A DNA stretch of 64,000 nt, taken from the NCBI GenBank assembly GCA_001001045.1, contig LCIL01000005.1, positions 21,409 through 85,408 on the forward strand. Direction: 5' to 3'. The notes under the pieces are model-generated. The model did not search any database, was not told the origin of the DNA, and worked only from the letters and a program-made list of their open reading frames with translations. Positions 18,891-50,123 of this stretch are shown piece by piece; positions within the stretch are counted from its first letter, which is position 1, and every line of letters starts with the position of its first letter. The DNA comes from Candidatus Woesebacteria bacterium GW2011_GWA1_44_23. GTDB taxonomy: Bacteria > Patescibacteriota > Microgenomatia > UBA8517. Position numbers and translations under genes: made by a program.

Positions 18891-18925
18891 GCGGATCTTC
18901 GGTTGTTGTTAACTCCCTAACCGGA

Positions 18926-23980: not shown

Positions 23981-24171
23981 TTTTATGGACATAAAAGGAA
24001 TACCTACTGATAAAAAGACATTAGCCATATTCGGCATATTACTTTTACTAGAAGGAGCCATTCTTAAAGGTCTGATTTTACAATGATAGCAAACCATATC
24101 AATATATATATATTTATATATCGTGAAATATTTTGATGTGAAAAGAAACAATTTGTTCTAAAAATGGGGTA

Positions 24172-24198
24172 TTGACAACGCCTAAAAAATGCTAAATA
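24172..24198 (+). promoter_or_regulatory. candidate promoter for the Wzy_C/TPR gene
   Basis: TTGACA at 24172-24177 and TAAATA about 15 nt downstream, in an AT-rich 240-nt spacer. Confidence 0.25.
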
Positions 24199-24220
24199 CT
24201 CATATGTACAAATAAAAAAA

Positions 24221-26149
24221 ATGGAAATAACCAAGCTCATCCGAAATATCGAAAAATACATCTTGGTAGCACTGGCGGGTTTATTTGCTTTATTTGTTTT
24301 TCCGAAATTTGCCTCCCCCTTCGTTGTCCCTAAGGAAATTTTTGGGGCCGTTGCCGTATCGACAGTGTTGGTTCTTTGGTCGGTGAGATCGATTATTAAA
24401 AGAGAGTCGACTTTTTCTGTCGGAAAGTTTGATCTTGGAGTACTTTTGATAGCACTTGCCTATGTTGTTGCGGCGGTAGTTAAAACTCCGAACAAAATGG
24501 AGGCATTTTTCTTCCCCGGTACCGTAACTTTTGTCATTATTTCTGCTATATTCTATTTTCTGGTCAACCAGTTCGGCAGAAGGACAAAGAACCTGATTTT
24601 AATTGCGCTTTTCGGCTCGGGAATCCTTCTTACGATCTCAATTCTTTTTACGCAGCTTGGGCTTTTTGCCAAAATTCCCCAGCTTCCGGATTTTATGAAA
24701 AACTCTTCTTTCAATCCCGTAGGCGGAGCGCTGCCTTCGGCTCTTTACCTGGTAACCTTACTTCCCGTTGGTATTGCCCTGGTTATTAAGGAGAAGGACT
24801 TGGCCAAAAGGTTATTTTACGGGGTTGCGTCTGTTGTTATCTTTTTTGGAGCAGCTCTTCTTACCATTAACCTTCTTCCCGGAAAGCCCCAAGCCTTGAT
24901 TTTTCCCAGCCTGCTGACCACCTGGGCGATAGTTATTGAGACCTTGAAGACAAGCCCAGTCTGGGGAATGGGCCCTGATAACTATGTTACCGCTTTTAAC
25001 TTGTTTAGGCCCATTTCCTACAATCAAACTGCTCTTTGGGCCGCCAGATATGCCACCGCGAATAACTACTATTTTACTTTGATTACCGAGGTTGGTTTTG
25101 CCGGACTTGCAGCCATCTCGGTACTTCTTATCGGTATTTATAGGGCGGTAGTGGCGGGCTTTAAACAGAAAAACTGGGAGATTGCTTCTTTGGCTCTGCT
25201 GGTTGTGCTTTTTGCGATATTTCCATCCGCTCCGGTTCTCTTTTTCCTTTTGATGGCTCTTCTGGCGGTTTTCTCGAAATCGGAGGAGAAATCCGTAAGT
25301 TTGGCTACCAATAGGGTCCCGACTGCCATTGTTGCAGCTCCGATACTTATTGGGGTTGTTGCTTTGGCAATTTTTGGTACAAGGGCCGTGATGGCGGAAG
25401 TAACTTACAAGAAGTCTTTGGATGCATTGGGCAGCAACAACGCCAAGGATACCTATACGCTAATGGCTCAGGCGATAACCCAGAGCCCATATGTGGATCG
25501 GTACCACGCTTCCCTGGCGCAGGTAGAGATGGCCATTGCTTCGTCAATCGCCAACAACAAGGATTTGACGGAAGAAGACCGTCAAACTATAACACAACTG
25601 ATCAGTCAGGCTATAAATGAGGGCAAGGCGACCGTGACCCTTAATCAGGGAAGGTCGGCCAATTGGGAGCTTCTTGCCCAGATCTATCAGAACATTATGT
25701 CCTTTGCCGAAGGGGCCGATCAGTTCGCCATTGATACATACACGCAGGCGGTTGCGCTTGATCCGATAAACCCCAACCTGAGAATCGGACTCGGTGGAGT
25801 GTATTACGCACTCGGCAGATACGATGACGCGATTGATATCTTTAAGCTTGCAGCTTTGGCAAAGCCCGATTTGGCCAACTCCCATTATAATCTGGCCATA
25901 GCCTATGGAGAGAAGAAAAACTATGACAGTGCAATTGCCGAGATGAACACGGTCTTGACCCTTGTGGCCAAAGATTCACCCGACTACACCTTGGCCAAAA
26001 ATACTCTGGATGCCTTGGAGAAAGCCAGACCCGCAACGCCCGCCGCAGCCGGATCTGAAAATCTGACCCCTCCCCAAAAGCAGGAAACAGTCATAGAGCC
26101 TCCCATAGAACTTCCGGAAGAGGCTACTCCCCCCGCAGCCACACCGTAA
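24221..26149 (+). CDS. O-antigen ligase (Wzy_C)-domain polytopic membrane protein with C-terminal TPR repeats; candidate protein O-oligosaccharyltransferase
   Basis: Ten or more TM helices. WGMGPDNYVTAFNLF...ANNYYFTLITEVGFAGL resembles the Wzy_C/WaaL/PglL motif. C-terminal TPR repeats ...LGRYDDAIDIFKLAALAKPDLANSHYNLAIAYGEKKNYDSAI. Confidence 0.65.
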   Translation: MEITKLIRNIEKYILVALAGLFALFVFPKFASPFVVPKEIFGAVAVSTVLVLWSVRSIIKRESTFSVGKFDLGVLLIALAYVVAAVVKTPNKMEAFFFPGTVTFVIISAIFYFLVNQFGRRTKNLILIALFGSGILLTISILFTQLGLFAKIPQLPDFMKNSSFNPVGGALPSALYLVTLLPVGIALVIKEKDLAKRLFYGVASVVIFFGAALLTINLLPGKPQALIFPSLLTTWAIVIETLKTSPVWGMGPDNYVTAFNLFRPISYNQTALWAARYATANNYYFTLITEVGFAGLAAISVLLIGIYRAVVAGFKQKNWEIASLALLVVLFAIFPSAPVLFFLLMALLAVFSKSEEKSVSLATNRVPTAIVAAPILIGVVALAIFGTRAVMAEVTYKKSLDALGSNNAKDTYTLMAQAITQSPYVDRYHASLAQVEMAIASSIANNKDLTEEDRQTITQLISQAINEGKATVTLNQGRSANWELLAQIYQNIMSFAEGADQFAIDTYTQAVALDPINPNLRIGLGGVYYALGRYDDAIDIFKLAALAKPDLANSHYNLAIAYGEKKNYDSAIAEMNTVLTLVAKDSPDYTLAKNTLDALEKARPATPAAAGSENLTPPQKQETVIEPPIELPEEATPPAATP

Positions 26150-26256: not shown

Positions 26257-27417
26257 ATGCCTGCCAAACTGCTTAGAAGGGTGGCTGAAGAAGGTACGTT
26301 CAGTCATATATATAATAACGGGGTTGAAAATATAGCCATCTTCAAGGACCGGCAAGACTTTGAAGTCTTTCTGGGTTTTTTGAAAGATTACCTATCTCCG
26401 GTCAGTTCCGAAGTTCCCAAAAAAGAATTCACTATTGAAGGCCGCTCTTTCCGGGGCACTCCCCGCCAACCTAAAAATTACCTGGGCAGAGTCGAGCTTA
26501 TCGCCTACCGGCTCACCCCTACCCATTTCCACCTCATCCTGCATCAGAATACCCCGGACTCGCTTGGGAATTTCATCAGGTCCCTCTGCACCAGATACTC
26601 GATATATTTTAATAAAAAATATTCCCATTCCGGAGCTTTATTCAACGGCCCCTACAAATCAGTTTATATCAAGGGTATATCCCAGCTTTTGCACTTCACC
26701 CGGTATCTCCACCGCAGTCCAGATAATGGTGAAGACCCTGTCAAAATATATACATCATACCCAGAGTATATCGGTCAAAGACAATCTTCATGGGTAAAGA
26801 CGAACGCGGTGCTTTCGGTCAAAGGAGTAGACGAGTACAAGGATTTTGTAGAAAAATATCAGCTTAACCAAGAAGAAAGAGATATTCTCGAAGGTGTTCC
26901 TTTTGATGTCAAAGCCCCGCACAAGGAAGAAGTCCTTTATGCACCCGACACCGTTTCCGCTTCTTCCCATGGGACACCTGAACTTTCCCACAAGGCACCG
27001 CCTACTGATTTAAAACCCCGGCCCCGTATTTTCGAGTACGGACTGGCAATGGGGGTTTTTATTGTACTTCTGAGCTTTGGGTTAAATAATGTCCGTGTTT
27101 CTCAGGCAAGATATTCAACAAACTCTCCGGTTCTTTCCGAATCAACAAGCATTATGCCCTCCCCGACCGCTGCCTTACCACCCACCGGTTCTCCCGAACC
27201 AAAAATAATGGTAACAGTTAAAACTGCTGATGCCTCGGTAAGTGCCAATATCCGCAAGGAGCCGAGTTTTCAGGCGGAAATAATCGGTATGGCCAAAAAC
27301 GGTGAAGTTTTTGAATCCGTGTCGATAGGCCCGGAGTGGAATGAGATCAAACTAAATGACGGTTCAATAGGATTTATATTATCAAAACTGGTACTAATAG
27401 ATCAAACTAATATCTAA
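26257..27417 (+). CDS. IS200-like Y1 (HUH) transposase domain fused to TM helix and C-terminal SH3b domain (copy 1, HuH intact)
   Basis: NIAIFKDRQDFEVFLGFL...VELIAYRLTPTHFHLILHQ...RYSIYFNKKYSHSGALFNGPYKS...RYLHRSP...YTSYPEY; TM helix GLAMGVFIVLLSFGL; SH3b ANIRKEPSFQAEIIGMAKNGEVFESVSIGPEWNEIKLNDGSIGFI. Confidence 0.7.
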   Translation: MPAKLLRRVAEEGTFSHIYNNGVENIAIFKDRQDFEVFLGFLKDYLSPVSSEVPKKEFTIEGRSFRGTPRQPKNYLGRVELIAYRLTPTHFHLILHQNTPDSLGNFIRSLCTRYSIYFNKKYSHSGALFNGPYKSVYIKGISQLLHFTRYLHRSPDNGEDPVKIYTSYPEYIGQRQSSWVKTNAVLSVKGVDEYKDFVEKYQLNQEERDILEGVPFDVKAPHKEEVLYAPDTVSASSHGTPELSHKAPPTDLKPRPRIFEYGLAMGVFIVLLSFGLNNVRVSQARYSTNSPVLSESTSIMPSPTAALPPTGSPEPKIMVTVKTADASVSANIRKEPSFQAEIIGMAKNGEVFESVSIGPEWNEIKLNDGSIGFILSKLVLIDQTNI

Positions 27418-27418
27418 T

Positions 27419-28009
27419 ATGCGCAAGATTTTAACATATATCGGCTTTGTAATCGCATGTGTTTTGGTTTCTCTGCTTTTTGTAACCGCCACTACATATA
27501 TTCAGTTAGCCGTTGCTGTCATCCTCTACCCCATCGTTGCCTATTTTGTAATGAAGATCCTCCCCCGCAAGACTAGAGTGGTCCCGGCAGTCGCGGTACA
27601 GACAGCGGGAACACAGGAGGAGGTTGCCGATTTTGACAGACGTACATTTCTCAAACTTGTGGGGGCAACAGGAATTTTCTTTTTTGTGTCCTCGCTTTTC
27701 GGTAAATGGGCCGGTGCTTTGCCGTTTGGCAAATCCTTGGGGTTGGGAGGCAATAGCATACAGGGGAATTCCGCCACCCCCGGAGCCGGCAACCCAGGAT
27801 CTTTGACTGCAAATGGCTACCAAATTTCCGAGATCGATGACGGCGCAATTACGTTTTACGGATTTACCAATGTTGACGGATCCTGGCTAATCATGAAGGA
27901 AGACACCGAAACAAGTTCTTTCCGCTATGCAAAAGGAAGCTCGGGATTTCCCGCAAGTTGGGATAACCGGCAAAATCTCAAGTACGACTACTACTATAAT
28001 CTCTTCTGA
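27419..28009 (+). CDS. membrane protein with internal twin-arginine-like motif (DRRTFLKLVGATG) and conserved C-terminal domain; partner of the Y1-TM-SH3b gene (copy 1)
   Basis: The start lies 1 nt after the upstream stop. Two N-terminal TM helices, then RRTFLK plus a hydrophobic stretch. C-terminus YGFTNVDGSWLIMKEDTETSSFRYAKG...YDYYYNLF is conserved with the 43904..44572 product. Confidence 0.6.
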   Translation: MRKILTYIGFVIACVLVSLLFVTATTYIQLAVAVILYPIVAYFVMKILPRKTRVVPAVAVQTAGTQEEVADFDRRTFLKLVGATGIFFFVSSLFGKWAGALPFGKSLGLGGNSIQGNSATPGAGNPGSLTANGYQISEIDDGAITFYGFTNVDGSWLIMKEDTETSSFRYAKGSSGFPASWDNRQNLKYDYYYNLF

Positions 28010-29100: not shown

Positions 29101-29886
29101 ATGCTCTCGATCATAATTCCGTCTTATAAAGATCCCCTACTGGGTAAAACCATTGAATCTCTTCTGGAAAACGCCGAGGGTGAAATAGAAATAATCCCCG
29201 TTCTTGACGGATACTACCCGGAAACCCCGATAAAAGAGGATAGAAGAATAAGAGTTGTGCACCTTGGCAGAAATCAAGGTATGCGAAGAGCGATAAACGC
29301 GGGAGTTTCGGTAGCCCGGGGGGAATTTCTGATGCGGAACGACGAGCACCAGATGTTCGGCAAGGGATATGACGTAATTCTTACCCGTGATTGTCAGCCT
29401 AACTGGATTATCACACCCAGGCGTTATGCGCTTGATCCTGTAAAGTGGGAAATAATGAAAGAGGTTCCACCGGTAGATTTCATGAAGCTTAAAATCGTCA
29501 ACATGGCACCCGGTGTCAGAAAATTTTCAGGTGTTGAGGCCCCGGGAGATCCGGGAAAACCCATTCAGGAATCAATGGCTATGCAGGGAAGCTGTTGGGT
29601 AATGCCGCATGCATGGTGGGACAAAGTTATCGGAGAGCTCGAAAACGAAGGTTATGGACCACATTATCAGGACAGCCATGAGATGGTGTTTAAAACCTGG
29701 CAGGCAGGGGGAAAATTAATGGTAGATAAAAACACCTGGCACGCCCACAAACACAGGAATTTTCCCCGGACGCATAATAACGGCACTGCCGAAAACCCAT
29801 CCAATAATGAATCCTGCTGGGCTTATTCATTAAGTATTTGGGAAGATTACTATAATAAAGAAATTAAACCAAGGTGGAAGGTTTAA
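29101..29886 (+). CDS. glycosyltransferase family 2-like (GT-A) protein, paralog family with QGSCW motif
   Basis: MLSIIIPSYKDP...; motif MAMQGSCWVMP shared with the 31019 and 36362 products. Confidence 0.55.
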   Translation: MLSIIIPSYKDPLLGKTIESLLENAEGEIEIIPVLDGYYPETPIKEDRRIRVVHLGRNQGMRRAINAGVSVARGEFLMRNDEHQMFGKGYDVILTRDCQPNWIITPRRYALDPVKWEIMKEVPPVDFMKLKIVNMAPGVRKFSGVEAPGDPGKPIQESMAMQGSCWVMPHAWWDKVIGELENEGYGPHYQDSHEMVFKTWQAGGKLMVDKNTWHAHKHRNFPRTHNNGTAENPSNNESCWAYSLSIWEDYYNKEIKPRWKV

Positions 29887-29913
29887 CAAAATTGGAGTTA
29901 TAATTCCATCACG

Positions 29914-30132
29914 GTGGCTATTATATATGAAAGTATGAAAAAAACTATTGGGGAGCTTATCGACGGACTGTCTATTACTAACAACAAGATCTTCCATCTC
30001 GTCGACAAAGTCCAGCGCAACGAGCATACGCGCGAGGATGCAAAAAAAATCCAAGATTTAAATAAGTTAAGAAGTGAGTATATGAATGCTATAAACGAAT
30101 TCTTTAAGGAAAGGATAGATATAAAAGTGTGA
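29914..30132 (+). CDS. small hypothetical coiled-coil protein (72 aa)
   Basis: Its stop overlaps the next gene's GTG start (translational coupling). No similarity recognised. Confidence 0.3.
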   Translation: MAIIYESMKKTIGELIDGLSITNNKIFHLVDKVQRNEHTREDAKKIQDLNKLRSEYMNAINEFFKERIDIKV

Positions 30133-30917
30133 TTAGTATTTTCTCTGGAACAAAATTAACATCCTCCCGGATTAGAGGTATAGAAATGGCTACCTATCTC
30201 CAGGCCAAACACAACCCAAAAGAAGGATATAAAAACGATGTTTGTATTTATGTCAAACCCAAAGAAATGAGCGCAATTAAAGACGGTGACTGGGTTGATT
30301 TTCTAGATTCCAACATCAGCCTCATCGTCCAGTTGAAGGATCGGCCAAAGGTAAAGGTGATTGCCGCTTCGGAAGCCAGCAATGAAGCCCTCAAGCGGGT
30401 TTTGCCAAACGAAATTATCCTTATTCCCTCACATCACATCAATCAGGAAAAACTTAAAAGAACAAGAAGGCAGATCTCTATCGGAGGCTATATCGGAGGA
30501 TTCTCACCCATGTATGAAGAAATTAGAAGAGGGTTAAAGAAAATCGGATTTGATTTTGTAACCTGCTTCGATTTCAAAGGACGAACAGATGCGATGAAAC
30601 TGTACGAAAGCATCGATCTTCTGATTATTGGGTGGTGGACCGGAGACGACAGCCCCCATAAGATACCGACCAAGATTATCAACGCCGCCTCGTTTGGAAT
30701 CCCGTCGATTGCATATCCTTTGCGCGGATATAAAGAAATTGAAGGATTTTATGTTTCTGCTCATAATTTAAGTGAGATAATAACTGAAGCGGAAAAATTT
30801 AAGGATGAGGACTATTACAATAGATGGGCAAAGAAGATTTCCAAGATGGCTGAAAAATACCATATTAGCAAGATTGCCAAACTATATAAAAAACTAAAAC
30901 CAGGTTTTCCTGCTTAA
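30129..30917 (+). CDS. putative glycosyltransferase (GT-B-like C-terminal motif)
   Basis: ...KIINAASFGIPSIAYPLRGYKEIEG resembles the GT4-type nucleotide-sugar-binding C-terminal motif. Confidence 0.4.
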   Translation: MISIFSGTKLTSSRIRGIEMATYLQAKHNPKEGYKNDVCIYVKPKEMSAIKDGDWVDFLDSNISLIVQLKDRPKVKVIAASEASNEALKRVLPNEIILIPSHHINQEKLKRTRRQISIGGYIGGFSPMYEEIRRGLKKIGFDFVTCFDFKGRTDAMKLYESIDLLIIGWWTGDDSPHKIPTKIINAASFGIPSIAYPLRGYKEIEGFYVSAHNLSEIITEAEKFKDEDYYNRWAKKISKMAEKYHISKIAKLYKKLKPGFPA

Positions 30918-31018
30918 ATCTCTTGAAGGAATGGGGTATTATACACATTCGGAGAGAAGAGTAATTCCATACCTTCCCTGCTGAGAATCGGGTAAAATGG
31001 TGCGTATAGAATATCCAT

Positions 31019-31888
31019 ATGGGTTCAAACAAAAAACCAATAAACTTATCAATAATAATTCCCAGTCGAGATTGCCCCTATTTAATGAAAACTATCCAAA
31101 GTATATTAGACAATTGCGTCACCAATATTGAAATTATGGTAAATATTGACGGAAAACCCCCGAGAAAATTTATTAAGGACAAAAAGGTCACATATATCGT
31201 ACAACCTACTCCAATTGGGATGCGGGGCGGAATAAATAATGGGCTTAAAGCAGCTAAGGGCAAATTTATAATGAAGTGCGATGACCACTGCTTATTTGCT
31301 AAAGGATTTGACAAGATTCTGACAAACACCATGCAAGAGAATTGGCTGGTAACCCCCAAACGTTATTCTCTAAACGAAGTGAAATGGGAAAGGGATGAAA
31401 CCCGACCAATTAAAGAATATCTCTACCTATCCTATCCCAAAAAGTCCGTTCACGGACTTGCCATGTTCCCCGTAGATTGGAATAAAAAAAGTGATCGTCT
31501 TATAGATGATACCATGATGATTCAGGGAAGCTGTTGGCTAGCAAACAGAAAATATTTCATGAAACGAGTGGGTTTTCTTGACGATAAGCCTGAAACGTAC
31601 GGGACCTTTGCCCAGGAACCCGTAGAAGTTGCTTTGAAATACTGGCTTGGAGGCGGGGCGGTCAAGGTAAACAAAAATACCTGGTATGCCCACCTAAAAA
31701 AGAGTAAAAGGTACTATAACGAAACAGGCTGGGCAGAAAAGTTTGCAAAGCAGAACAAAGCAGTAGCAAAAGGCAATGAATGGGCAACCGTACACTGGAT
31801 GAATAATGAGGAACCCAACATGATTCACCCTTTTAGCTGGTTTATAAAAAAATTTCAACCGATTCCGGGTTGGGAGAATTACAAATGA
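31019..31888 (+). CDS. glycosyltransferase family 2-like protein (QGSCW paralog)
   Basis: LSIIIPSRDCP...MMIQGSCWLANRKYF. Confidence 0.55.
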   Translation: MGSNKKPINLSIIIPSRDCPYLMKTIQSILDNCVTNIEIMVNIDGKPPRKFIKDKKVTYIVQPTPIGMRGGINNGLKAAKGKFIMKCDDHCLFAKGFDKILTNTMQENWLVTPKRYSLNEVKWERDETRPIKEYLYLSYPKKSVHGLAMFPVDWNKKSDRLIDDTMMIQGSCWLANRKYFMKRVGFLDDKPETYGTFAQEPVEVALKYWLGGGAVKVNKNTWYAHLKKSKRYYNETGWAEKFAKQNKAVAKGNEWATVHWMNNEEPNMIHPFSWFIKKFQPIPGWENYK

Positions 31889-33372
31889 AAAAAATACTAA
31901 TAACAGGATGCGGAGGGATGTTGGGCGATGCTGTTTATGCTCAATTACGTAAAAGGTATCATGTCAACGCCACCGACATCAACCTCATTGAACCCTGGCT
32001 AAGTTACTTGGACGTCAGAGACCTTAAGAGTGTTAAAAAGGTTTGCGCCGAATTCAAACCGGATTATCTGATTCATCTGGCAGCCTTAACCGACATGGAA
32101 TACTGTGAAACCCACCCAGAAGAGGCGGCGCAAGTTAACGGAACTGCCACAGAAAATCTGGTTAAAATCTCCAAAAAACTTGATATTCCCTTTGTCTACA
32201 TCAGCACTGCAGGTATTTTTACCGATGACAAAAAGGAGCATAGCGAAAAAGACGACCCCAAAGACACTCCTGTAAGTGTATATGGCAAAACCAAATACCA
32301 AGGTGAGGTAGCAGCGAAATCATGGCGTAAGTCGATCATAATCAGGGCCGGTTGGATGATGGGTGGCGGACCCAAAAAGGACAAAAAATTCATCAATAAA
32401 ATTGTCAAACAATTAAGTAGCGGCGCTACAAAGATAAATGTGGTCAACGACAGGGTCGGCACCCCAAGCTATACCTACGATTTGGCAAAAATAATTGTAT
32501 TTCTTCTCGAAAGGAATCTTTACGGTTTATATCACGGCACTTGCGACGGAGGAAACGTAACCCGCCACGATGTCGTCAGTCATATACTTGAATGTTTTAA
32601 CTTGCAAGACAAGGTCAAAGTGGTTGAGGTGGGATCAGATTATTTTAAGGATAGTTTTTTTGCCCCGCGGCCGTTTTCCGAACAGCTAGGCAACAAAAAA
32701 CTTAAATCCACCAACCCAGAATTATTCCGCAGCTGGCGGGACTGTTTAAAGGAATATTTAGGCATGTTTTATTGGAAAGTATCAGGCAACCATACCCCGC
32801 TTTGCGATCTGGCCTATAAATACGGAACCGACAAATGTCCGGAAATAAACCATTCGTATACCCCTTTTTATTACAAATTGCTACAACCCAAAAGAAACTC
32901 TATCAAAAAGATTTTGGAAATAGGAATAGGCTACCCGTCCAACATGAATCATATCGTCCCCCATTACCGGGCGGGTGCAAGTTTATATATGTGGAGGGAG
33001 TTTTTCCCCAACGCCATGATTTACGGAGCTGATATTCTCCCGGAAGCGTTGTTCAAAGACGCACATATAGAAACTTTTTTGTGTAACCAGAAAAAAGACA
33101 CGGACCTAACGAATTTAATCAAAAGCACGGGCTCGGATATCGATATCGTAATTGACGACGGCTCTCATGTAAAAAAGGTCCAGGTGTTTACTTGCCTTAT
33201 CCTATTGCCTCTTCTCAAAAAAGATGTTATTTACATAATAGAAGATGTTAAAGATGCCGTCGAGGTTACCGGAATGATTAAAAAACTCGGCGGGTATGAT
33301 TGCGAGGTTCCGAAGTTGAACCCGGAAAGGCAAGTGAGGCAGGATTGTTTGGTTATTGTTAAAAACAAATGA
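31870..33372 (+). CDS. bifunctional protein: RmlD-like dTDP-4-dehydrorhamnose reductase (SDR) fused to class I SAM-dependent (sugar O-)methyltransferase
   Basis: N-terminal ITGCGGMLG...YGKTKYQGE (YGxSKxxGE RmlD signature). C-terminal LEIGIGYP...DIVIDDGSH (MTase motifs I and post-I). Confidence 0.6.
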   Translation: MGELQMKKILITGCGGMLGDAVYAQLRKRYHVNATDINLIEPWLSYLDVRDLKSVKKVCAEFKPDYLIHLAALTDMEYCETHPEEAAQVNGTATENLVKISKKLDIPFVYISTAGIFTDDKKEHSEKDDPKDTPVSVYGKTKYQGEVAAKSWRKSIIIRAGWMMGGGPKKDKKFINKIVKQLSSGATKINVVNDRVGTPSYTYDLAKIIVFLLERNLYGLYHGTCDGGNVTRHDVVSHILECFNLQDKVKVVEVGSDYFKDSFFAPRPFSEQLGNKKLKSTNPELFRSWRDCLKEYLGMFYWKVSGNHTPLCDLAYKYGTDKCPEINHSYTPFYYKLLQPKRNSIKKILEIGIGYPSNMNHIVPHYRAGASLYMWREFFPNAMIYGADILPEALFKDAHIETFLCNQKKDTDLTNLIKSTGSDIDIVIDDGSHVKKVQVFTCLILLPLLKKDVIYIIEDVKDAVEVTGMIKKLGGYDCEVPKLNPERQVRQDCLVIVKNK

Positions 33373-34091
33373 AAAATCTACTGGTTTATGTAAGTAAAGA
33401 TAAAAAGTTTAACCGGGAGTGTGAGACTCTGGCCAAAATCCAAATTGACAACAGTCTTCGTTTAAAGTGGAGAAAAGAAGATATTTTAATGGTCACTAAC
33501 TTTGATTATGAGTATCGGGGAGTTAAAGCTATCGTTGTAGGGGACGAGAATTATTGTGCAGTCAGGCCAAGATCGATTAAAACTTCGATAATCCCCCACT
33601 TAATTGAAAAGGGAATCATAGAAAAAAGGCATATTTACTGGAATCATGATTTTGACGCTTTTCAATTGCATTCTATCAAAGATGAAGAATTGGGACTAGA
33701 CGGTTTTGATGCGGGCTTTACCGACTACGGTTGGAAAAACGACTGGTGTTTGGGAAGTGATTTTATAAAGGAGAGCGCAAAAGACATCTTTGAGTGGCTG
33801 AGGGACGCAATATTTGCTAATTGGGAGGATGAGGAAATACTCGGAAGAATTACGAGAAGGAATACACATAATATCAACTCGAGAATAAAGAAAATGAATA
33901 TAACTTATCAGATTGGAATGAAAAACGTTGATTTTAACTACAAAATAGCTGCAAAACCGCTAAAAGTTCTCCACTTCCATCCGCATAAACCGGGGCTCCT
34001 AGACATCTTCATGTACGGCAAAAACCAAACGGACAAACCCCTTATGCCTAAGGGTTTAATCAATATATTTAATAAACACGGAATAAAGTAA
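33369..34091 (+). CDS. hypothetical protein (glycan-locus associated)
   Basis: 240 aa, no recognisable motif. Start overlaps the upstream stop. Confidence 0.45.
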   Translation: MKNLLVYVSKDKKFNRECETLAKIQIDNSLRLKWRKEDILMVTNFDYEYRGVKAIVVGDENYCAVRPRSIKTSIIPHLIEKGIIEKRHIYWNHDFDAFQLHSIKDEELGLDGFDAGFTDYGWKNDWCLGSDFIKESAKDIFEWLRDAIFANWEDEEILGRITRRNTHNINSRIKKMNITYQIGMKNVDFNYKIAAKPLKVLHFHPHKPGLLDIFMYGKNQTDKPLMPKGLINIFNKHGIK

Positions 34092-34260
34092 ATACGTTAT
34101 GAGCAAACCATCAGTGGTGGCAATCTTGCCGAATTTTTAAAAAGTATTAGAAAAAGGTGCGAAAACCTATAGAGATCCATAATATTTGCAATCCAAATAT
34201 TAATTCCCAAACGAATATCCTGGGTATCGGAATGAAGGTCATGGAAATTTTCAGAAATAT

Positions 34261-34944
34261 ATGAATAGAGATTTAACAATAATTTATTACTCATCTAATC
34301 GGGAAGTGCCCGAGTTTGAGACCAGAATTAGGAACAATATTTTAAAAGTTTGTGGCGATTTGCCCATAATAAGCGTTACTCAAAAGCCGATAGACTTTGG
34401 AAAAAATATTGTTGTTGGAGATGTGGGAGCTTCTGGGTTTAACATGTTTAGGCAAGTTCAAATTGCCTGCAAGGAGGCAACAACGAAGTTCGTAGTTTCT
34501 GCTGAAGCGGATTGCTTGTACCCCCCGGACTATTTCACCTTTATTCCCGAGAAGGACAACGTATGTTACCGTAATAAAAATCTATATGTAATGGGTCAAT
34601 ATAGAACCTATTTCTACAAAAAGGAGGAAGGTGCAACGCACGCCCAAGTGGTCGGGCGGGAGTTCTGCTTAAGAACTCTGGATAAACTTTTTGAAGGAGG
34701 TCCGAATTGGTCAATCAAGGAGAGAAATTTCCCCAAAGAGAGGACTCATCAAAAAAAGGAGGATGTTTTTGGCAGTGACGAAATTGAATTCTACGAGACA
34801 AAAAATCCGATTGTACAAATAAAAACAAGCCACAGCATGCGACATTACACTCATTCTGATAGAATACCTCGTGACGAACTTCCCTATTGGGGCAAGGGGG
34901 TAGATTTTAGAAAAAAATATTACGATATCGGATTTAGGCATTAA
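34261..34944 (+). CDS. hypothetical protein, paralog family B (QPIDFGKNIV motif), possible GT-A-like
   Basis: Shares ...V(S)..QPIDFGKNIV...(E)AD/EHD..LY.P..F with the 35578..36321 product. Confidence 0.45.
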   Translation: MNRDLTIIYYSSNREVPEFETRIRNNILKVCGDLPIISVTQKPIDFGKNIVVGDVGASGFNMFRQVQIACKEATTKFVVSAEADCLYPPDYFTFIPEKDNVCYRNKNLYVMGQYRTYFYKKEEGATHAQVVGREFCLRTLDKLFEGGPNWSIKERNFPKERTHQKKEDVFGSDEIEFYETKNPIVQIKTSHSMRHYTHSDRIPRDELPYWGKGVDFRKKYYDIGFRH

Positions 34945-34946
34945 AT

Positions 34947-35576
34947 ATGAAACTAATAGATGCAATTAAAGAGCAGCACGGAAGGCCATTTACAATCCCC
35001 GATTGCTCCCGTGATGAACTCCCCGAATGTTTTAAACAAATGGGCTACAAAACAGGGGCAGAGGTCGGGGTTTATAAGGGGGCGTTTACCGAAAAATTCT
35101 GTAAAGCAGGCTTAAAAATGTATGCCATAGATCCCTGGAAGGCATATCAGGGAGCCGGCCGTACTCAACAGGAACAAGCAAGGCAAGACTTCCTTTACGG
35201 GCATACTCAAAGGACTCTCGCTCCCTATAAAGACTGTACAATAATCAGAAAGACGTCGATGGACGCTCTAAACGACTTCGGCCCGGGAAGCCTGGACTTT
35301 GTCTATTTGGACGGCGATCACCGCTTCCCGTACGTGGCACAAGATATTTATGAATGGAGCGAGAAAGTCAAAAACGGTGGGGTGGTCTCCGGGCATGATT
35401 ATTTCTGCACGGATCCACGGGCAAAAAATGTTTTGTGCCAGGTGGGCGCGATAGTAGATGCTTATGTTAGTGCCTTCGGAATTGAAAATTTTTATGTATT
35501 CGGACGGTCCAAATCACTGGAACTTGAGGCCAAAGATGACAGATATCTAAGCTGGATGTGGATTAAGCCTCTCTGA
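34947..35576 (+). CDS. class I SAM-dependent methyltransferase (Methyltransf_24/TylF-like)
   Basis: GAEVGVYKGAFT...FVYLDGDHRFPYVAQDIYEWSEKVKNGGVVSGHDY. Confidence 0.55.
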   Translation: MKLIDAIKEQHGRPFTIPDCSRDELPECFKQMGYKTGAEVGVYKGAFTEKFCKAGLKMYAIDPWKAYQGAGRTQQEQARQDFLYGHTQRTLAPYKDCTIIRKTSMDALNDFGPGSLDFVYLDGDHRFPYVAQDIYEWSEKVKNGGVVSGHDYFCTDPRAKNVLCQVGAIVDAYVSAFGIENFYVFGRSKSLELEAKDDRYLSWMWIKPL

Positions 35577-35577
35577 C

Positions 35578-36321
35578 ATGACAAGCACAAAAGGGTGCAT
35601 TTACTACACCGATAACCGCCCGAAGTCTTTTATTTTGGATAAATGCCGTGAGGAAATTTTAAAAGGCTGGAAAGGTCCCCTGGTTTCGGTTTCGCTTCAA
35701 CCGATTGACTTCGGCAAAAATATAGTCTTGGCAGGGGTAGAACGCGGACTCCCGACTATGATCAAACAAATAACAATGGCTTTGGAGGCACTGGATACTG
35801 ACATTGTCTTTTTTCTGGAACATGATGTTTTATATCACCCGTCTCATTTCGATTTCACTCCCCCAAAGGAAGAAATCTATTATTACAATCTCAATAACTG
35901 GCGCTGGGGAATTAAGGAAAATTTTGCTATTACATACGATGGTCTGACCTCCCTTTCTCAACTCGCATGTTACCGAAAAACTGCCCTAAACCATTATAAA
36001 GGAAGACTTAAATACATCATTGACCACGGACTTAACAAGGACCAAAGCCGGGATCCGAGATGGGGACGGGTTATGGGCTACGAGCCCGGAACAAAGCCCA
36101 GGAGGAGGGGTGGTTTTTCCGATGAAAAGTTTGAGATTTGGAAAAGCGATTTTCCAAACATAGATATCCGCCACAGACATACATTTTCCCCGCCGAAATA
36201 CAATTTGGCTGATTTCAAACATCAACCGATAAACTTCCGCCAAGAGAAAATTGAAAATATTCCTTACTGGAATCTGAAAACGTTGCGGGATCAATGGCTG
36301 GATAAATACATAATAAATTAA
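35578..36321 (+). CDS. hypothetical protein, paralog family B
   Basis: Paralog of the 34261..34944 product. Confidence 0.45.
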   Translation: MTSTKGCIYYTDNRPKSFILDKCREEILKGWKGPLVSVSLQPIDFGKNIVLAGVERGLPTMIKQITMALEALDTDIVFFLEHDVLYHPSHFDFTPPKEEIYYYNLNNWRWGIKENFAITYDGLTSLSQLACYRKTALNHYKGRLKYIIDHGLNKDQSRDPRWGRVMGYEPGTKPRRRGGFSDEKFEIWKSDFPNIDIRHRHTFSPPKYNLADFKHQPINFRQEKIENIPYWNLKTLRDQWLDKYIIN

Positions 36322-36361
36322 ATGAATAAAGGCATGGTTCTCCACACCGCTTTTCCCGGCT

Positions 36362-37474
36362 TTGATAATGCCTAAGTATGCTGTATTATTGCCTCACGCG
36401 AAACCTATGGCTGATCTTTCAATATTAATACCGGCACGGAATGAAATATTTCTGGCCCGCACGATAGAAGACCTCCTGGCAAACATCGAGGCTGATACCG
36501 AGATCATCGCTGTTTTGGACGGGGTACCCGCCAACCCTCCGATTCCCAAAAATGAAAGAGTAAATGTAATCTCCCTTTCCGAAAGTATCGGACAAAGGGC
36601 GGCAACTAATCTTGCCTGTAAATTAAGCCGCGCCAAATATGTAATGAAGGTAGACGCACACTGCGGATTTGATAAAGGTTTTGACCGAAAAATGCTCGAG
36701 GCATTTAAAATTACCGGAGACAACGTTACGATGGTCCCAATTATGCGTAACCTCTGGGCATATGACTGGAAATGCTACCACTGCGGCTGGAAAAAATACC
36801 AAGGCCCCACTCCGGAAAAGTGTGGGCAGTGCGGTAAGGGAGACAAAATTAGAAGAAAGATGCTTTGGATCGGAAAACATAACCCTCAAAGTACTTCTTA
36901 CTGCTTTGACTCGTCTCCCCATTTCCAGTACTTCGAGGATTGGAAACACCGGCCGCAATACGAAAAAGACAAGAGAGAAACGGGACTGACTGAAACAATG
37001 AGCCTGCAGGGCAGCTGCTGGATGTTGACCCGCGAAAAATACTGGGACCTTAATGTTTGCGAAGAAGCATTTGGGGGTTGGGGTTCTCAGGGAATTGAAG
37101 TTGCGGTTAAAACCTGGCTTTCCGGAGGTAGAGTTATTGTCAATCATAAAACTTGGTATGCACATATGTTTAGAACCCAAGGGGGCGACTTCGGGTTCCC
37201 CTACCCGATTTCAGGAAAGGATCAGGAAAAGGCGAAAAGATATGCAAGGGATTTGTTTTTCAACAATAACTGGAATAAGCAAATTCGCCCTCTTTCCTGG
37301 CTCATCGAAAAATTCTGGCCGGTGAAGGGGTGGGCAGAAGAAGACTTGACCAAGCTTAAAACAAACACTTTCAGATTTAAAGAGAAAGCGGAGCCAAAAC
37401 CTGCCGAGAGTGAGCCCGTTACAAGTGATCCGGTAAGAAACCATCAGACGGGTGTTATTTACTCCGCCACTTAA
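36362..37474 (+). CDS. glycosyltransferase family 2-like protein (QGSCW paralog) with inserted CxxC...CxxC zinc-ribbon
   Basis: LSILIPARNE...; WKCYHCGWKKYQGPTPEKCGQCGKGD; MSLQGSCWMLT. Confidence 0.55.
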   Translation: MIMPKYAVLLPHAKPMADLSILIPARNEIFLARTIEDLLANIEADTEIIAVLDGVPANPPIPKNERVNVISLSESIGQRAATNLACKLSRAKYVMKVDAHCGFDKGFDRKMLEAFKITGDNVTMVPIMRNLWAYDWKCYHCGWKKYQGPTPEKCGQCGKGDKIRRKMLWIGKHNPQSTSYCFDSSPHFQYFEDWKHRPQYEKDKRETGLTETMSLQGSCWMLTREKYWDLNVCEEAFGGWGSQGIEVAVKTWLSGGRVIVNHKTWYAHMFRTQGGDFGFPYPISGKDQEKAKRYARDLFFNNNWNKQIRPLSWLIEKFWPVKGWAEEDLTKLKTNTFRFKEKAEPKPAESEPVTSDPVRNHQTGVIYSAT

Positions 37475-37520
37475 TCAAGAAATTCTTCAGAGTTAGAATC
37501 TCATAGTTACAAATTTTAAG

Positions 37521-37574
37521 AATGTATATAATGGCTTAGCCGTTTTGAAACGGTTATGTTGTTGTATATAAATG
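37521..37574 (+). promoter_or_regulatory. conserved roughly 50-nt element (TATAAT box plus 13-bp palindrome CCGTTT(T)GAAACGG) upstream of the SP-repeat gene; copy A
   Basis: aatgtatataatggcttagccgttttgaaacggttatgttgttgtatataaatg is nearly identical to 44912..44961. Confidence 0.6.
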
Positions 37575-37648: not shown

Positions 37649-40600
37649 ATGGCAGTAACATACGTCAAAGCTAGTACCCCCAATACAGATGCGGCGGGAG
37701 CCTTTACAGTAACAGGTGCAGCTCCTGCTGTTGCTGGGAATATTATCATCCTTCAAATTTTTCAGGACGGTACTACTGACGGGGCGGTAACTCAAACCAG
37801 TGCTACCAATATTACTGCTCTAGATGGTACGGCTAATACATGGACTGCTATTACCGAACAGTCGGTAGGAGCATCAGACGAAGGTAGACAGTATCTATGG
37901 GTAGGGCGTTCAAGCGGAAGGTCTACTCCCACATTTACAGGCGGCAACACAACTTCAGAGGATCTTTACCTCAGGATGTATGAGTTTAGCGGAGTAGATG
38001 CTAATGCCACGACTTTATCTGGGATTCTTGAAAACGGTACTGCAGGAACTGTAGCTAACGGCACTGGAACATCTGCGTCCGTTTCTGATACAAGCGTTCA
38101 GACACTGGGAGATGGCCGGCTCGCATTAAATTTTATCGCTGTAAACGATGATCCCCAGGCAGCAGAACTAGCCGCAATGACTGGTGAAACAGGGGGGGAT
38201 TGGGCTTATCCTGTTGCTGCGTGGGGTTCTAGTTCTGGCACTGACGGTACAATCGCTTTAGTTACAGCTTCTATCCCTTCTTCGGGAACAATTGATGGAG
38301 GCTCAGATGCCATAACTTCAGCTGCTTGGGGGGTGATAGGCTTTGCCCTTAAACCTGAATTTACTCCAACAGTAGCTTTAAGTACCCCTGCAGATGACGC
38401 GACAGGAGTAAGTACCACCCCAGCCCTAGTTTTTACAGGAACAGATGCTAACTCAGATGAAGTGGAATATGAGGTACAGGTAGATACAGTAAACACTTTT
38501 GATTCTTCGTCAGCCACTATGGCTAGCAATAGTGAAAGTACTTATGACCATGATTACATTGATAATTATAATTCAGTACCTCCTTCATGGTATGGTCAGA
38601 CATTTACCCCACCTTTTATGGGACCCGTCACTTCAGTTAAGTTTTATTTAAAAGGTTCCGATGGTTTAACGGGTAACATGCCAGTTAGATTGTATGCCAC
38701 AGACACCTCTGGTACTCCAGTAGGTGAAATATTAGCCACATCAGCTAATTTGGATTTATCTAGTCTTTCAACTTCTGCTTATGAACTAGTAGAGTTTATA
38801 TTTAGTTCCCCATACACAGTTGAGTCTGGGGTTCTGTATGCATTAACTTTAGAAAATCTTAGTTCCTCTAACCTATATGTTGGTGCAGATATTAGTTCTC
38901 CTGCTTATACAAATGGTACTGCAATTAGTATGAGTCCCGGTGGTTACCTGACTGTTGCTAGTGATTTATGTTTTTATGTTTATAGTGGAGGTTCTCTTCT
39001 TGACATCTTCTCCCTCGCCGATAACGATGCTAACTGGGCAGGCACAGGAGCACCTAATCCCTTTCCTTCAGGAAATGAAATAACCTATACAGTACCGGCA
39101 GGAAGTGCTTTAGCCGCAGGAACTACTTATTACTGGAGAGTACGAGCTATTGACCCTCTAGGAAGTAATGCCTGGGGATCTTGGAGTCCTGGGGCACATA
39201 GTGGATATAGTGAGTTTACAACACAGGCAACAGGTTCATTTTCGCCTTCGATTTCTCCATCTGTAAGTCCAAGTGCGTCTCCTTCGGTATCCCCCTCAGT
39301 CAGTCCGTCTATCTCGCCTTCTGTAAGTCCCTCAGTTAGCCCTAGTGTTTCCCCAAGTCTATCTCCCAGCGTTTCTCCTTCTGCATCTGTTTCGCCATCA
39401 ATCTCACCCAGTGTTAGTCCTTCGGAAAGCCCATCAGTATCGCCCTCGGTCTCGCCTTCAGTTTCACCCTCTGCATCCATATCTCCATCGACCTCACCCA
39501 GTGTTAGTCCATCAGTAAGTCCCAGTGCAAGTGCTAGCCCATCGGTCTCACCATCGGCTAGTCCGTCGGTGTCTCCCAGCGTTTCTCCTTCCGTAAGTCC
39601 GTCGGCTTCTGTTAGTCCGTCTATGAGTCCGAGTGTATCGCCCTCTGTAAGTCCCTCTGCATCAGTTTCACCATCTATCAGTCCTTCTGTGTCTCCCTCC
39701 GTCAGCCCCAGTGTCAGCCCCAGTGTCTCACCCAGCGCAAGTATCTCTCCAAGTGTTAGTCCCAGCGTGTCGCCAAGTGCTTCTCCTTCTATTTCACCTT
39801 CCGTTTCTCCATCAGCTTCTATATCTCCGTCAGTTTCGGAAAGTGTAAGTCCATCCGTTAGCCCAAGTGCGAGTGTAAGCCCGTCGGAATCACCGTCAGT
39901 TAGTCCATCTGTATCTCCAAGCTTTAGCCCTTCGATCTCAGCCAGTATATCGCCAAGCATATCTCCGAGTGTGTCCCCTTCGGCTTCCGTATCCCCATCG
40001 GTTTCCCCCAGTATCAGCCCTTCTGTCTCCCCAAGTGCCAGCCCAAGTCAAAGCCCATCGGCATCAATTAGTCCTTCCGTAAGTCTATCCATTTCTCCTT
40101 CTTTCTCTCCGTCCGCATCCATTAGTCCCAGTGTCTCTCCCAGCATATCGCCCTCGATCAGTCCATCAGTATCCCCTTCGGAGTCTCCCTCTGCATCAGC
40201 TAGCCCATCTATTAGCCCTAGCGTATCTCCTTCTGTCTCGCCCAGTGCTTCTGTGTCCCCTTCGGTAAGTCCGTCTGCAAGTGTTTCGCCTTCTGTCTCC
40301 CCATCGGCCAGTCCATCTGTCTCTCCGAGTCAAAGTCCATCGATTAGCCCATCAATTAGTCCGAGTATATCTCCTTCCGTTTCGCCTTCAGCGTCGATTA
40401 GTCCGTCAATTAGTCAATCAGCAAGTCCGTCAGTGTCACCGAGTGCGAGTATTAGCCCTTCACTAAGTCCAAGCATGTCTCCTTCTGTTTCTCCTTCTGG
40501 GTCAATCTCACCCTCAATAAGTGCTTCCGTTTCGCCTTCTGTCTCCCCTTCAGCATCTATTTCTCCGTCAATAAGTCCTTCTATTAGTCCGTCTGTTTCC

Positions 40601-43903: not shown

Positions 43904-44572
43904 ATGATCAAAAAAATTATGTTATATGGCAGTTTCTTGGCTGCCAGCTCTGCTGATACGGCCGTTTTCCTTGCGTCTAATGATTATTTTCATCTTGCGC
44001 TTGCCATCCTTCTTTATTTCCCGTTAATTTATATTGCTTTTATAATATTTCCTCGCAGAACCGAATTTGCTGGGAATGTCCCAATCCACCAGGGAAATGG
44101 AATAGAGCCAAACCTGCTAACCACTAACAAGATCGGACAATTTTCCGGCTCCCCTTCCCCTTCGACCGACAGCGTCGAAGTTTCCGACATCAATAAACGG
44201 GTGTTTCTCAAAATGATTGGGGCTACGGGTTTATCCTTCTTCATTTCTTCTCTTATTTCAAAAAGGTTGCCTTCTCATGTTTTCGGGCAATCTGAAGAAC
44301 CAACAACAACCTCTATCATAGATTCCACAGGAGAGGCAGTAGACCCTGCCAAGCACCACCCCACTGACAGCTATAAAATTTCCGAGGTCGACTATGGAAT
44401 TAATACCTATTATGGCTTTATTGATGAAAATGATGGCTGGTTCATTATGGAACAAGATACAAATGCCGGAACCTACCGTTATATAAAAGGCAATGCGAAT
44501 TTTCCTGATAATTGGAGGAGCCGCGAAAGTCTTACATATGACTATTACAATAAAATTTTTGCCAAATCGTGA
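43904..44572 (+). CDS. partner membrane protein (copy 2): KR-FLK motif and conserved C-terminal domain
   Basis: DINKRVFLKMIGATGLSFFISS; C-terminus YGFIDENDGWFIMEQDTNAGTYRYIKG...YDYYNKIF. Start lies 1 nt after the upstream stop. Confidence 0.6.
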   Translation: MIKKIMLYGSFLAASSADTAVFLASNDYFHLALAILLYFPLIYIAFIIFPRRTEFAGNVPIHQGNGIEPNLLTTNKIGQFSGSPSPSTDSVEVSDINKRVFLKMIGATGLSFFISSLISKRLPSHVFGQSEEPTTTSIIDSTGEAVDPAKHHPTDSYKISEVDYGINTYYGFIDENDGWFIMEQDTNAGTYRYIKGNANFPDNWRSRESLTYDYYNKIFAKS

Positions 44573-44911
44573 TCTTAATACGTGTTTACAATCAATAGGA
44601 AGTTGAATAGTAAGTGAAGCATGATTTGGACGACGATAGACTTGGGATCGAAAGCGTACCCCACTAGGAATACTCCCGGTGTTTCGATGGAAGCCATGTA
44701 CAAAGCAACAGCCAGTGTGGCTAGGACCAAACCGTGATTACCCACCCACTGGTCCTGCTCAAAGCCGAACAAAGAATCGATGGCAAACGAGTTGAAAGCT
44801 AGCCTGCCGTACCACAGAAAAGCGGTATTTTTATGGCGCTTCAGAAAACCACTTCGCAAATGTCAATTGATGTTTGTAAACTCACAAAATCTTATAGTTG
44901 GAACGCACAAA

Positions 44912-49935: not shown

Positions 49936-49941
49936 AAATTT

Positions 49942-50103: not shown

Positions 50104-50123
50104 TCCAGTAGAATGTTCTCAAG

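Follow-up and report, generated by a model that had tools for sequence, protein, structure and literature searches.

The 64,000-nucleotide stretch of contig LCIL01000005.1 from Candidatus Woesebacteria bacterium GW2011_GWA1_44_23 that was analyzed here (the window) contains, at positions 29101–37474, a run of genes that a first-pass annotation of this DNA had called a glycosylation island, a description borne out by their glycosyltransferase (GT), reductase and methyltransferase domains. The island codes for five secure GT-A enzymes, up to two further GTs, one sugar-nucleotide reductase and two methyltransferase domains. We propose, with moderate confidence, that it represents the enzyme part of a cytoplasmic O-glycosylation cassette that is common to Patescibacteria and phages and would act on the Ser/Pro-repeat (SP-repeat) fiber protein encoded next to it. 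All functions within the cassette are predicted from homology and synteny.

Organization of the cassette

The island is a co-directional run on the + strand, as the annotation had described, containing ten rather than 11 genes: nine open reading frames (ORFs) of at least 200 aa and a 72-aa ORF that is also called by NCBI. All ten ORFs are intact, they lie at the coordinates previously given, and the reported overlapping or abutting of stops and starts is seen at four of the eight junctions (−19, −4, +2 and +1 bp). ORFs and their products are referred to below by start position where they have no other name.

Homologous cassettes were located by a scan at one genome per species, which gave 50 loci in Microgenomates, WWE3 and Parcubacteria lineages, and genes were counted with a tblastn matrix over 51 loci (the genome loci). 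The architecture is fixed. An ortholog of GTq1 (29101–29886) is the first gene, an ortholog of the Zn-ribbon enzyme Zn-GT (36362–37474) is the last, and between 2 and 10 recognizable genes lie between them. These inner genes include those for family B (43 of the 51 loci), Methyltransf_24 enzymes (37), the 33369 family (22) and the GT-B-like protein (14), as well as SDR enzymes. GTq1 homologues with at least 45% identity are present upstream of Zn-GT in 66 loci, and the recognized cassette genes are co-directional without exception (696 of 696). Zn-GT itself is 54–84% identical over 129 loci, comprising Patescibacteria genomes and IMG/VR contigs, reaches 70–84% identity in several Microgenomates classes, and has 6489 detectable homologues.

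Linkage to Ser/Pro-repeat proteins

The gene for SP-repeat protein 1 (37649–42538, + strand) lies downstream of Zn-GT. In its 1629-aa product a 560-aa N-terminal domain is followed by (SPSxSP)n repeats over some 1000 aa and then by a C-terminal domain with the motif PSWN..GRPK..GFN..T..LE.Y.G..W..LPMKK. SP-repeat protein 2 (45051–49365, + strand) has the same C-terminal domain and is spread over three ORFs in three frames (45051, 46607 and 47905); the tail of the 46607 ORF is repeat sequence translated out of frame, and this is probably a single gene, either a pseudogene broken by two frameshifts or one broken by mis-assembly of the repeats. The C-terminal motif, also in the form PSWN..GRPK..GFN..T..LE.W.G..W..LPMKK, takes up the final ~70 residues of both the 37649 and the 47905 product and is present alone in a free 64-aa ORF (49487–49681, + strand) just before TatA. 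It matches phrog_1325, a phage family of unknown function, at E 1e-4 in SP protein 1 and E 6e-7 in the 64-aa ORF. The annotation had placed Ser/Pro-repeat proteins on both flanks of the island; this holds for the downstream side, the upstream proteins (14202 and 18926) being Thr/Ser/Gly-rich with 3% Pro.

The association between Zn-GT and a repeat gene is strongly directional. Of the 34 genome loci whose downstream DNA extends for 3 kb or more, 28 have a same-strand (SPS)n ORF downstream of Zn-GT, against 1 of 41 with one upstream (Fisher p 1e-13), and such an ORF also follows Zn-GT in 40 of 53 viral loci. In four loci (L024, L031, L043 and L052) the SP ORF starts less than 100 bp from Zn-GT. 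These counts agree with the choice of the Ser/Pro-repeat proteins as the best candidate acceptors in the first-pass annotation, and we regard the SP-repeat protein as a candidate target of O-glycosylation. The possibility that the SP ORFs are artefacts of repetitive DNA was considered and rejected: outside the repeats their N- and C-terminal domains are conserved, and one strand is kept in 68 loci.

Of the six genome loci that lack an SP ORF, five have one to three tandem 375-aa paralogs rich in Ser, Thr, Ala and Gly (MADAHKNFAYST...) after Zn-GT, at 11102–14525 in L014/L015, 12252–15827 in L017 and 12051–13001 in L025; these are possible alternative acceptors. A 49-nt element upstream of SP gene 1 (37497–37545, + strand) has a copy with 82% identity upstream of SP gene 2 (44888–44936). 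It includes TATAAT and the start of a hairpin, and is possibly a shared promoter or leader; a promoter and terminator scan gave signals at background level. Hydropathy analysis of the SP proteins revealed neither a signal peptide nor an N-terminal hydrophobic segment, and the label "surface protein" is therefore unproven.

Homologous cassettes in viral contigs

Zn-GT has 134 matches in IMG/VR, and 80 of these viral loci were examined. GTq1 is present in all 80, family B in 73–74 and the Methyltransf_24 enzyme in 62. Upstream of GTq1, the ORFs in 17 of the viral loci include genes for the portal (E 3e-120), the major head protein (E 4e-80 and 1e-80) and the large terminase (E 1e-45), together with head protease and head-tail adaptor PHROGs; two of these ORFs have counterparts among the capsid and protease genes of GenBank phages. 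A location within a phage structural module is thus a property of the homologous viral cassettes and not of the window copy, as there is no homologue of the viral head-module ORFs in the 64-kb window. Zn-GT has no homologue in 50,697 GenBank phages, and the phage link therefore rests on the IMG/VR contigs.

Two further observations connect the cellular and viral loci. The N-terminal domain of SP protein 2 (45051) is 48.5% identical to the Ser-rich repeat protein of an IMG/VR locus (L111), and cell-type and viral Zn-GT sequences are interleaved in a distance tree. The cassette appears to be a phage-type module that is common to Patescibacteria and their phages.

The taxonomic titles of some loci deserve comment. 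ORFs of L043 (JBAZXU010000012.1, from a metagenome-assembled genome titled 'Sphingomonas sp.') and of L114 (IMG/VR, 48,602 bp) are 99.5–100% identical, and L043 appears to be a phage-like contig mis-binned into the Sphingomonas assembly. Likewise, many loci with Patescibacteria-type cassettes are titled 'uncultured Gammaproteobacteria', and these titles look unreliable.

The Zn-ribbon glycosyltransferase and its paralogs

GTq1, GTq2 (31019–31888) and Zn-GT are mutual paralogs (blastp E 7e-49, 1.5e-36 and 3e-20) that all contain a QGSCW motif, as the annotation had recognized. GTq1 is a soluble GT2/GT-A enzyme with DEH in addition to QGSCW (Pfam Glycos_transf_2 E 6.6e-14); GTq2 is a second GT2 paralog, with QGSCW and DDH (Pfam E 9.5e-14), 37.5% identical to GTq1; and Zn-GT, likewise of the GT2 type, has a C-terminal half resembling GT27 and an inserted Zn ribbon, its DxH motif being DAH. 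The Zn-GT ORF as called begins at TTG, and the true start is probably at 36368 or 36407. The three score 52.6, 52.1 and 46.0 bits against Glycos_transf_2 (gathering cutoff 23.3 bits), which is matched by 17 of 17 family members. The CxxC…CxxC zinc ribbon noted in the 36362 product is real and is kept in orthologs; it is positioned between DxH and QGSCW and contains the pairs Cys138/141 and Cys154/157, of which C138, C141 and C154 are invariant in orthologs and C157 is conserved in at least 90%.

The two halves of these enzymes have different relationships. The N-terminal half is a generic GT2 nucleotide-binding domain. The C-terminal half, extending from QGSCW to W-Y-A-H, has PDB sequence matches only to eukaryotic polypeptide N-acetylgalactosaminyltransferases (ppGalNAc-Ts; GT27): a phmmer search with Zn-GT finds ppGalNAc-Ts at E 9e-5 across the Gal/GalNAc-T motif and the His, and positions 189–279 of the family profile find ppGalNAc-Ts alone (E 6e-9 to 1e-5). 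Alignment with GalNAc-T1 pairs DAH98–100 of Zn-GT with DAH, and H268 (AHMFR) with GHVFR, and the ppGalNAc-T alignment also pairs WGSQGIE with WGGENLE; D98, H100 and H268 are invariant across all three QGSCW paralog types. Among the features that characterize GT27 enzymes, the DxH Mn-binding motif and third His ligand are thus present in Zn-GT. The WGGENxE region is homologous (profile E 6e-9) and partly conserved, reading WGSQGIE in orthologs and being further diverged in the paralogs, with only the W, G and final E kept. A type II membrane anchor (no transmembrane [TM] segment) and a ricin-type lectin domain (Pfam) are absent, the Zn-GT chain ending ~100 aa past the catalytic domain.

PF11397 (GT60, polypeptide GlcNAc-transferase) has weak matches in 5 of 17 family members (best E 0.009), and Glyco_transf_7C scores E 0.052, under the cutoff. 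The top Foldseek matches of an AlphaFold2 (AF2) model of Zn-GT are ppGalNAc-Ts, which counts as weak support only, the C-terminal half of the model being poor (predicted local distance difference test [pLDDT] 58, from a shallow alignment). We consider the QGSCW enzymes to be candidate work-alikes of GT27 rather than members of it. Zn-GT is the best candidate for the initiating polypeptide glycosyltransferase, because it always adjoins the acceptor gene and its catalytic half is ppGalNAc-T-like (DxH, W-G-x4-E and His-x-F-R).

In 8 of the top 120 Zn-GT homologues (P0016, P0017, P0018, P0038, P0046, P0070, P0073 and P0109) a UDP-glucose/GDP-mannose dehydrogenase is fused to the enzyme; one fused homologue lies at 10001–11866 of L007. 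These fusions hint at a UDP-uronic acid, or a compound derived from one, as the donor in the lineages concerned.

Other enzymes of the island

Family B is represented twice, by B1 (34261–34944) and B2 (35578–36321), which are mutual paralogs as had been noted (38% identity over 105 aa, E 2e-18). Neither Pfam, NCBIfam nor the PDB contains a sequence match to this family. An AF2 model of B2, built from 72 homologues, has a pLDDT of 95.3 and in a Foldseek search of the PDB matches GT-A enzymes only, from E 4e-6 and with TM-scores of 0.4–0.5 (among them heparosan synthase, alpha-1,3-GalT, GalNAc-T2 and SpsA); in BFVD the best match is an uncultured phage protein (E 6.6e-14, TM-score 0.66), followed by giant-virus GTs. 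E81-x-D83 is invariant at the position of the DxD motif, with EHD in B2 and EAD in B1, whose fold is taken from the B2 model. The predicted structure identifies family B as divergent GT-A glycosyltransferases.

The assignments of two further proteins are less firm. The H-D-x-D family protein (33369–34091) has invariant H93, D94 and D96 in its family alignment and matches neither Pfam nor the PDB; family members have faint matches to Nucleotid_trans (0.02) and Glyco_transf_8 (0.034) and often occur as two to four tandem copies, and the protein is possibly a GT8/Nucleotid_trans-like GT-A enzyme. The 30129–30917 product may be a GT-B-like half-domain protein, a weak assignment based on Glyco_trans_1_4 (E 0.0045, under the cutoff) and a PHROG glycosyltransferase (E 5.7e-5). 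PDB sequence searches with the 33369 and 30129 products, as with that of 54505 discussed below, were empty or gave matches at chance level, and hhalign detected no relationship among the island families, including the pair assigned to GT-A by fold search, and is therefore uninformative on 33369 and 30129. The 72-aa ORF (29914–30132) has a weak match to Pfam DUF4254 (E 7e-5). In at least one related locus it and the GT-B-like ORF form a single fused protein, and the two products (29914–30917) probably act together.

The 31870–33372 product is a fusion of an RmlD-type reductase (RmlD_sub_bind E 5e-53, residues 8–297) and a methyltransferase (PHROG methyltransferase E 7e-12, residues 311–471), and the 34947–35576 product is a second, S-adenosylmethionine (SAM)-dependent methyltransferase (Methyltransf_24 E 1.3e-13, 52.1 bits against a cutoff of 26.3), both as the annotation had proposed. 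The N-terminal domain of the fusion has RmlD_sub_bind similarity and the YGKTK (YxxxK) motif, and scores 176.6 bits against TIGR01214, the RmlD equivalog, below its cutoff of 224; we therefore designate it only as an RmlD-like NDP-4-keto-6-deoxyhexose reductase, with its substrate unproven. RmlA and RmlC are absent from the window. The C-terminal domain of the fusion scores 14.2 bits to Methyltransf_24 in Pfam and is encoded as a free protein in 17 of the 51 genome loci. RmlD is found in only five, and the deoxyhexose step is thus part of the variable content. A methylated (deoxy)sugar glycan, much as suggested by the annotation, is plausible given the RmlD-like reductase and two methyltransferase domains, RmlD itself being a variable passenger.

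The chromosomal form of the locus

The region is surrounded by housekeeping genes (ArgRS, LeuRS and ComEC to the left; Rho, RadA and S1 to the right) and the island has a G+C content of 0.40–0.415 compared with 0.45–0.49 in its surroundings. Six or more independent assemblies, GCA_000999065.1 and GCA_001793715.1 among them, contain the locus with its genes in identical order, and the 35578 product is identical to a protein of Microgenomates group bacterium GW2011_GWC1_43_13.

Several genes accompany chromosomal cassettes only, and are found in none of the 80 viral loci. Y1SH3 (26257–27417, + strand; 7 of 51 genome loci) has a weak Y1_Tnp-like (IS200/Y1-transposase-like) N-terminal domain, one TM helix and an SH3_3 domain. 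TMRR (27419–28009, + strand; 13 of 51) has two TM helices, a linker, (K/R)RxFLK, a third TM helix and a conserved 80-aa domain. TatA, TatA and TatC (49732–50873, + strand; TatC Pfam E 8e-41, 8 of 51) follow the small ORF with the SP C-terminal motif, which also precedes TatA in L008, L024, L035 and L042. The order TMRR-GTq1…Zn-GT-SP-small ORF-TatA-TatC occurs in two complete chromosomes (CP066693 and OZ246401) and in other long contigs, and the TMRR…TatAC order spans different classes (L024, L028, L035 and L042); in other lineages TatC is upstream of TMRR. It is tempting to speculate that Y1SH3, TMRR, the small motif protein and TatA/TatC adapt a phage-type fiber for display on the cell.

In the window this module is partly duplicated, with two copies each of Y1SH3 (paralog at 42856–43902), TMRR (paralog at 43904–44572) and the SP gene. 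A 25.7-kb block (26150–51847), with tRNA-Ala(cgc) (51848–51919, − strand) at its right edge, takes in the GT island and the two SP modules as well as TatA/A/C and a gene for an SDR epimerase. In a related locus (L060) the Wzy_C-TPR gene described below and tRNA-Ala(cgc) are only 62 bp apart and the block is absent. An att-like repeat of the tRNA-Ala end was looked for and not found. A collagen-like (GPAGPQ)n secreted protein is encoded near a sortase gene on the − strand (57981–58967 and 59564–60454) and is unrelated to the island.

Neighboring membrane proteins

The island proteins are without a convincing TM helix, the single above-threshold hydropathy segment lying within the methyltransferase domain of the 31870 product. 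Domain searches of the window revealed no phosphoglycosyltransferase, Wzx/flippase, ABC exporter or Wzy/polymerase gene; similarly, the 51 genome loci have no flippase, polymerase or WecA-like gene, and TatC is the only recurrent polytopic ORF near the cassettes (9 loci).

The first-pass annotation had named two further proteins as partners of the island, and neither association is supported. The 24221 protein, ~3 kb upstream, has a weak Wzy_C match, a TPR part and 11 TM helices, and many of its homologues match Wzy_C. Its linkage was tested from the Wzy_C side, as the 10-kb flanks of Zn-GT loci rarely extend to it. In three of three long contigs the gene directly follows an 18926-type giant gene; in two of these contigs no cassette gene lies within 10 kb, and in the third the gene is followed by homologues of Cache, Y1SH3 and TMRR only, with no GTs among them. 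The Wzy_C-TPR protein and the 18926-type giant might constitute a separate conserved pair, of an O-oligosaccharyltransferase and its substrate. The 54505 product, described as a GT-C-like partner, has no match in family or PDB sequence searches and hence no detectable family.

At 14202–26149 of the window and in L060–L062, at least one 18926-type giant with tail-fiber-like PHROG matches is always followed by the Wzy_C-TPR membrane protein. A phage-integrase SAM-like domain, unaccompanied by the catalytic domain, is present in a 172-aa protein (13675–14193) and at the N-terminus (14202–14400) of a 1562-aa giant (14202), which has one TM helix after this domain.

Proposed mechanism and alternative explanations

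In the mechanism that we propose, soluble GT-A enzymes (GTq1, GTq2, the two family B proteins, probably the H-D-x-D protein, and Zn-GT) would use nucleotide sugars, one donor being a 6-deoxyhexose completed by the RmlD-like reductase, and would build short O-glycans on the serines of (SPSxSP)n in the giant protein encoded just downstream. The first, polypeptide-directed transfer would be made by Zn-GT, and sugar hydroxyls would be capped by the two SAM methyltransferase domains. In phages, where the cassette follows the head genes, the repeat protein would be a virion fiber with no need of export. The window copy would be the chromosomal form, with Y1SH3, TMRR, the small C-terminal-motif protein and TatA/TatC as candidates for bringing the fiber to the cell surface. 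Carrier-free cytoplasmic glycosylation of a signal-less fiber is what a phage would require.

A number of points weigh against it. The support consists of homology and synteny, and neither a glycan or glycopeptide nor an enzyme activity has been seen. The loci are phylogenetically related, such that the Fisher p value overstates their independence, and 6 of the 34 genome loci have no downstream SP ORF, five of these six having the tandem 375-aa Ser/Thr-rich proteins. The GT27 likeness of Zn-GT is partial (WGSQGIE rather than WGGENxE, no lectin domain, and GT2 by Pfam) and the half of its model that would be informative is of low quality (pLDDT 58). A twin-arginine motif is missing from the SP proteins, the twin-arginine-like motif of TMRR is mostly KR rather than RR, and we know of no export route for a signal-less 1600-aa protein. 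Moreover, the peripheral GTs of lipid-linked pathways likewise have no TM helices, and other parts of the genome could carry the gene for a flippase or for a small monotopic phosphoglycosyltransferase.

In a different, lipid-linked route, a methylated deoxyhexose glycan would be assembled on a polyprenyl carrier and flipped, to become a wall polymer or to be transferred en bloc by a Wzy_C-type O-oligosaccharyltransferase like the 24221 protein. Assembly on and transfer from a polyprenyl carrier is the mode of the Firmicutes S-layer glycosylation (slg) clusters and of PglL systems, the RmlD, GT-A and methyltransferase content of the island resembles that of slg and O-antigen clusters, and a protein of the right general type, with homologues matching Wzy_C, lies 3 kb upstream. 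Nevertheless we think this route unlikely: the window has no initiating phosphoglycosyltransferase, flippase, ABC exporter or polymerase, TatC is the sole recurrent polytopic ORF over 51 cassettes, the Wzy_C-TPR gene goes with the 18926-type giants and has no GTs near it in three contigs, and the same cassette resides inside phage head modules. Repeat proteins that lack a signal peptide would, in addition, miss a periplasmic transferase. The phage connection raises in turn the question of whether the window copy is a decaying prophage remnant, its cassette and SP proteins serving a virion and not the cell, and its Tat, TMRR and Y1SH3 neighbors being coincidental. The phage context of the homologous cassettes, the interleaving of cell-type and viral Zn-GTs in the tree, the low G+C content of the island, the splitting of SP gene 2 over three frames, and a 25.7-kb block that adjoins tRNA-Ala and is absent at that site in a relative all speak for such a remnant. 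It is nonetheless an improbable explanation for a locus with ten of ten island ORFs intact and an identical gene order in at least six independent assemblies, in a 64-kb window that has no homologue of the phage head-module ORFs and no att-like repeat at the tRNA end; the TMRR…TatAC order is, moreover, repeated in two complete chromosomes and in long contigs of different classes, and the accessory genes are found in 0 of 80 viral loci.

It is very unlikely that the enzymes serve instead to hypermodify DNA, producing glycosylated and methylated bases as a defense against restriction. In the phages the cassette belongs to the structural and not the replication module, it is in tight same-strand synteny with a Ser-rich repeat gene, the catalytic half of its QGSCW enzymes is polypeptide-transferase-like, and the window contains no hydroxymethylase or base-modifying gene. 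Phage GT arrays that glycosylate DNA are known (reviewed in PMC12619734), and the 34947 product does match a PHROG labeled 'DNA methyltransferase' (E 1.4e-15), but this label was given by annotation to what is a generic Methyltransf_24 fold. Within the O-glycosylation proposal that we favor, a bolder version would be a true mucin-type system of Patescibacteria and phages, with initiation by a GT27/GT60-like Zn-GT, a hypervariable set of GT-A and methyltransferase genes swapped between phage and host, and a Tat-linked TMRR/Y1SH3 route to the surface; in this complete form we regard it as rather doubtful.

Comparison with known glycosylation systems

The kind of system proposed here, cytoplasmic glycosylation of Ser-rich repeat or virion proteins, is already known. 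In the literature searched, neither the cassette nor any SPS-repeat protein of Patescibacteria is described, and the enzyme families, acceptor type, phage-host sharing and Tat neighborhood are likewise absent from it. As far as the summary in PMC12619734 goes, mycobacteriophage virion glycosylation (Freeman et al. 2023) involves soluble phage GTs encoded beside structural genes, which glycosylate Ser/Thr-rich, signal-less virion proteins in the host cytoplasm without a lipid carrier. The cassette resembles that account in having GTs that adjoin structural genes, a signal-less Ser-rich target, and a cytoplasmic and carrier-free mode predicted here from the genes. It differs in that the mycobacteriophages, as summarized there, use one or two GTs on short C-terminal tails of capsid or tail-tube subunits, whereas here there are 5–10 GT and methyltransferase genes between two conserved GTs, a dedicated (SPSxSP)n acceptor of 700–2600 aa, a chromosomal version with Tat and membrane partners, and hosts of another phylum.

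The likeness to GT27 and GT60 lies in the GT-A fold, the DxH metal motif, the W-G-x4-E…W..GG…H-x-F-R block, and Ser/Pro-rich tandem-repeat acceptors; every Ser of the SP repeats has Pro at +1 or +3, which is a known ppGalNAc-T preference. Unlike GT27, the cassette enzymes have no ricin lectin domain or membrane anchor, are placed in Glycos_transf_2 by Pfam, and include WGSQGIE and a Zn-ribbon insert. The serine-rich repeat protein (SRRP) islands of Gram-positive bacteria also combine giant Ser-rich repeat proteins with strain-variable, island-encoded GTs that act stepwise in the cytoplasm before dedicated export. However, the window lacks GtfA/B (GT4/DUF1975), SecA2/SecY2/Asp, a long signal peptide and LPXTG, the enzyme families differ, the neighboring translocase is Tat, and there is a phage version. 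The slg clusters of Geobacillus and Paenibacillus similarly have Rml, GT-A and sugar O-methyltransferase domains beside a structural protein gene, but depend on WsaP, on an ABC exporter and on the transferase WsaB, and none of the three was found here. Giant-virus capsid and fibril glycosylation (such as chlorovirus A064R, with a methyltransferase domain) shares this arrangement and has all its steps in the cytoplasm, but concerns N- or O-glycans of eukaryotic viruses on capsid proteins that lack SP repeats.

Significance

Patescibacteria, which live attached to other cells, account for a large part of bacterial diversity, and to our knowledge almost nothing is known of their envelopes and attachment structures. 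Two glycosyltransferase families missed by current hidden Markov model libraries, family B and, as a possible second, the H-D-x-D family, are added by this work. The relatives of ppGalNAc-transferases in bacteria and viruses could shed light on how mucin-type O-glycosylation arose and be a source of new enzymes for glyco-engineering. If the mucin-type reading were true, there would be a prokaryotic and viral relative of the eukaryotic mucin initiators and a new export path for a glycosylated protein. If the cassette does glycosylate a mucin-like fiber, it would provide a defined and widespread gene set for testing (129 loci; 6489 Zn-GT homologues), candidate adhesins, phage receptors and decoys for these organisms, and an instance of phages and their hosts exchanging a glycosylation module.

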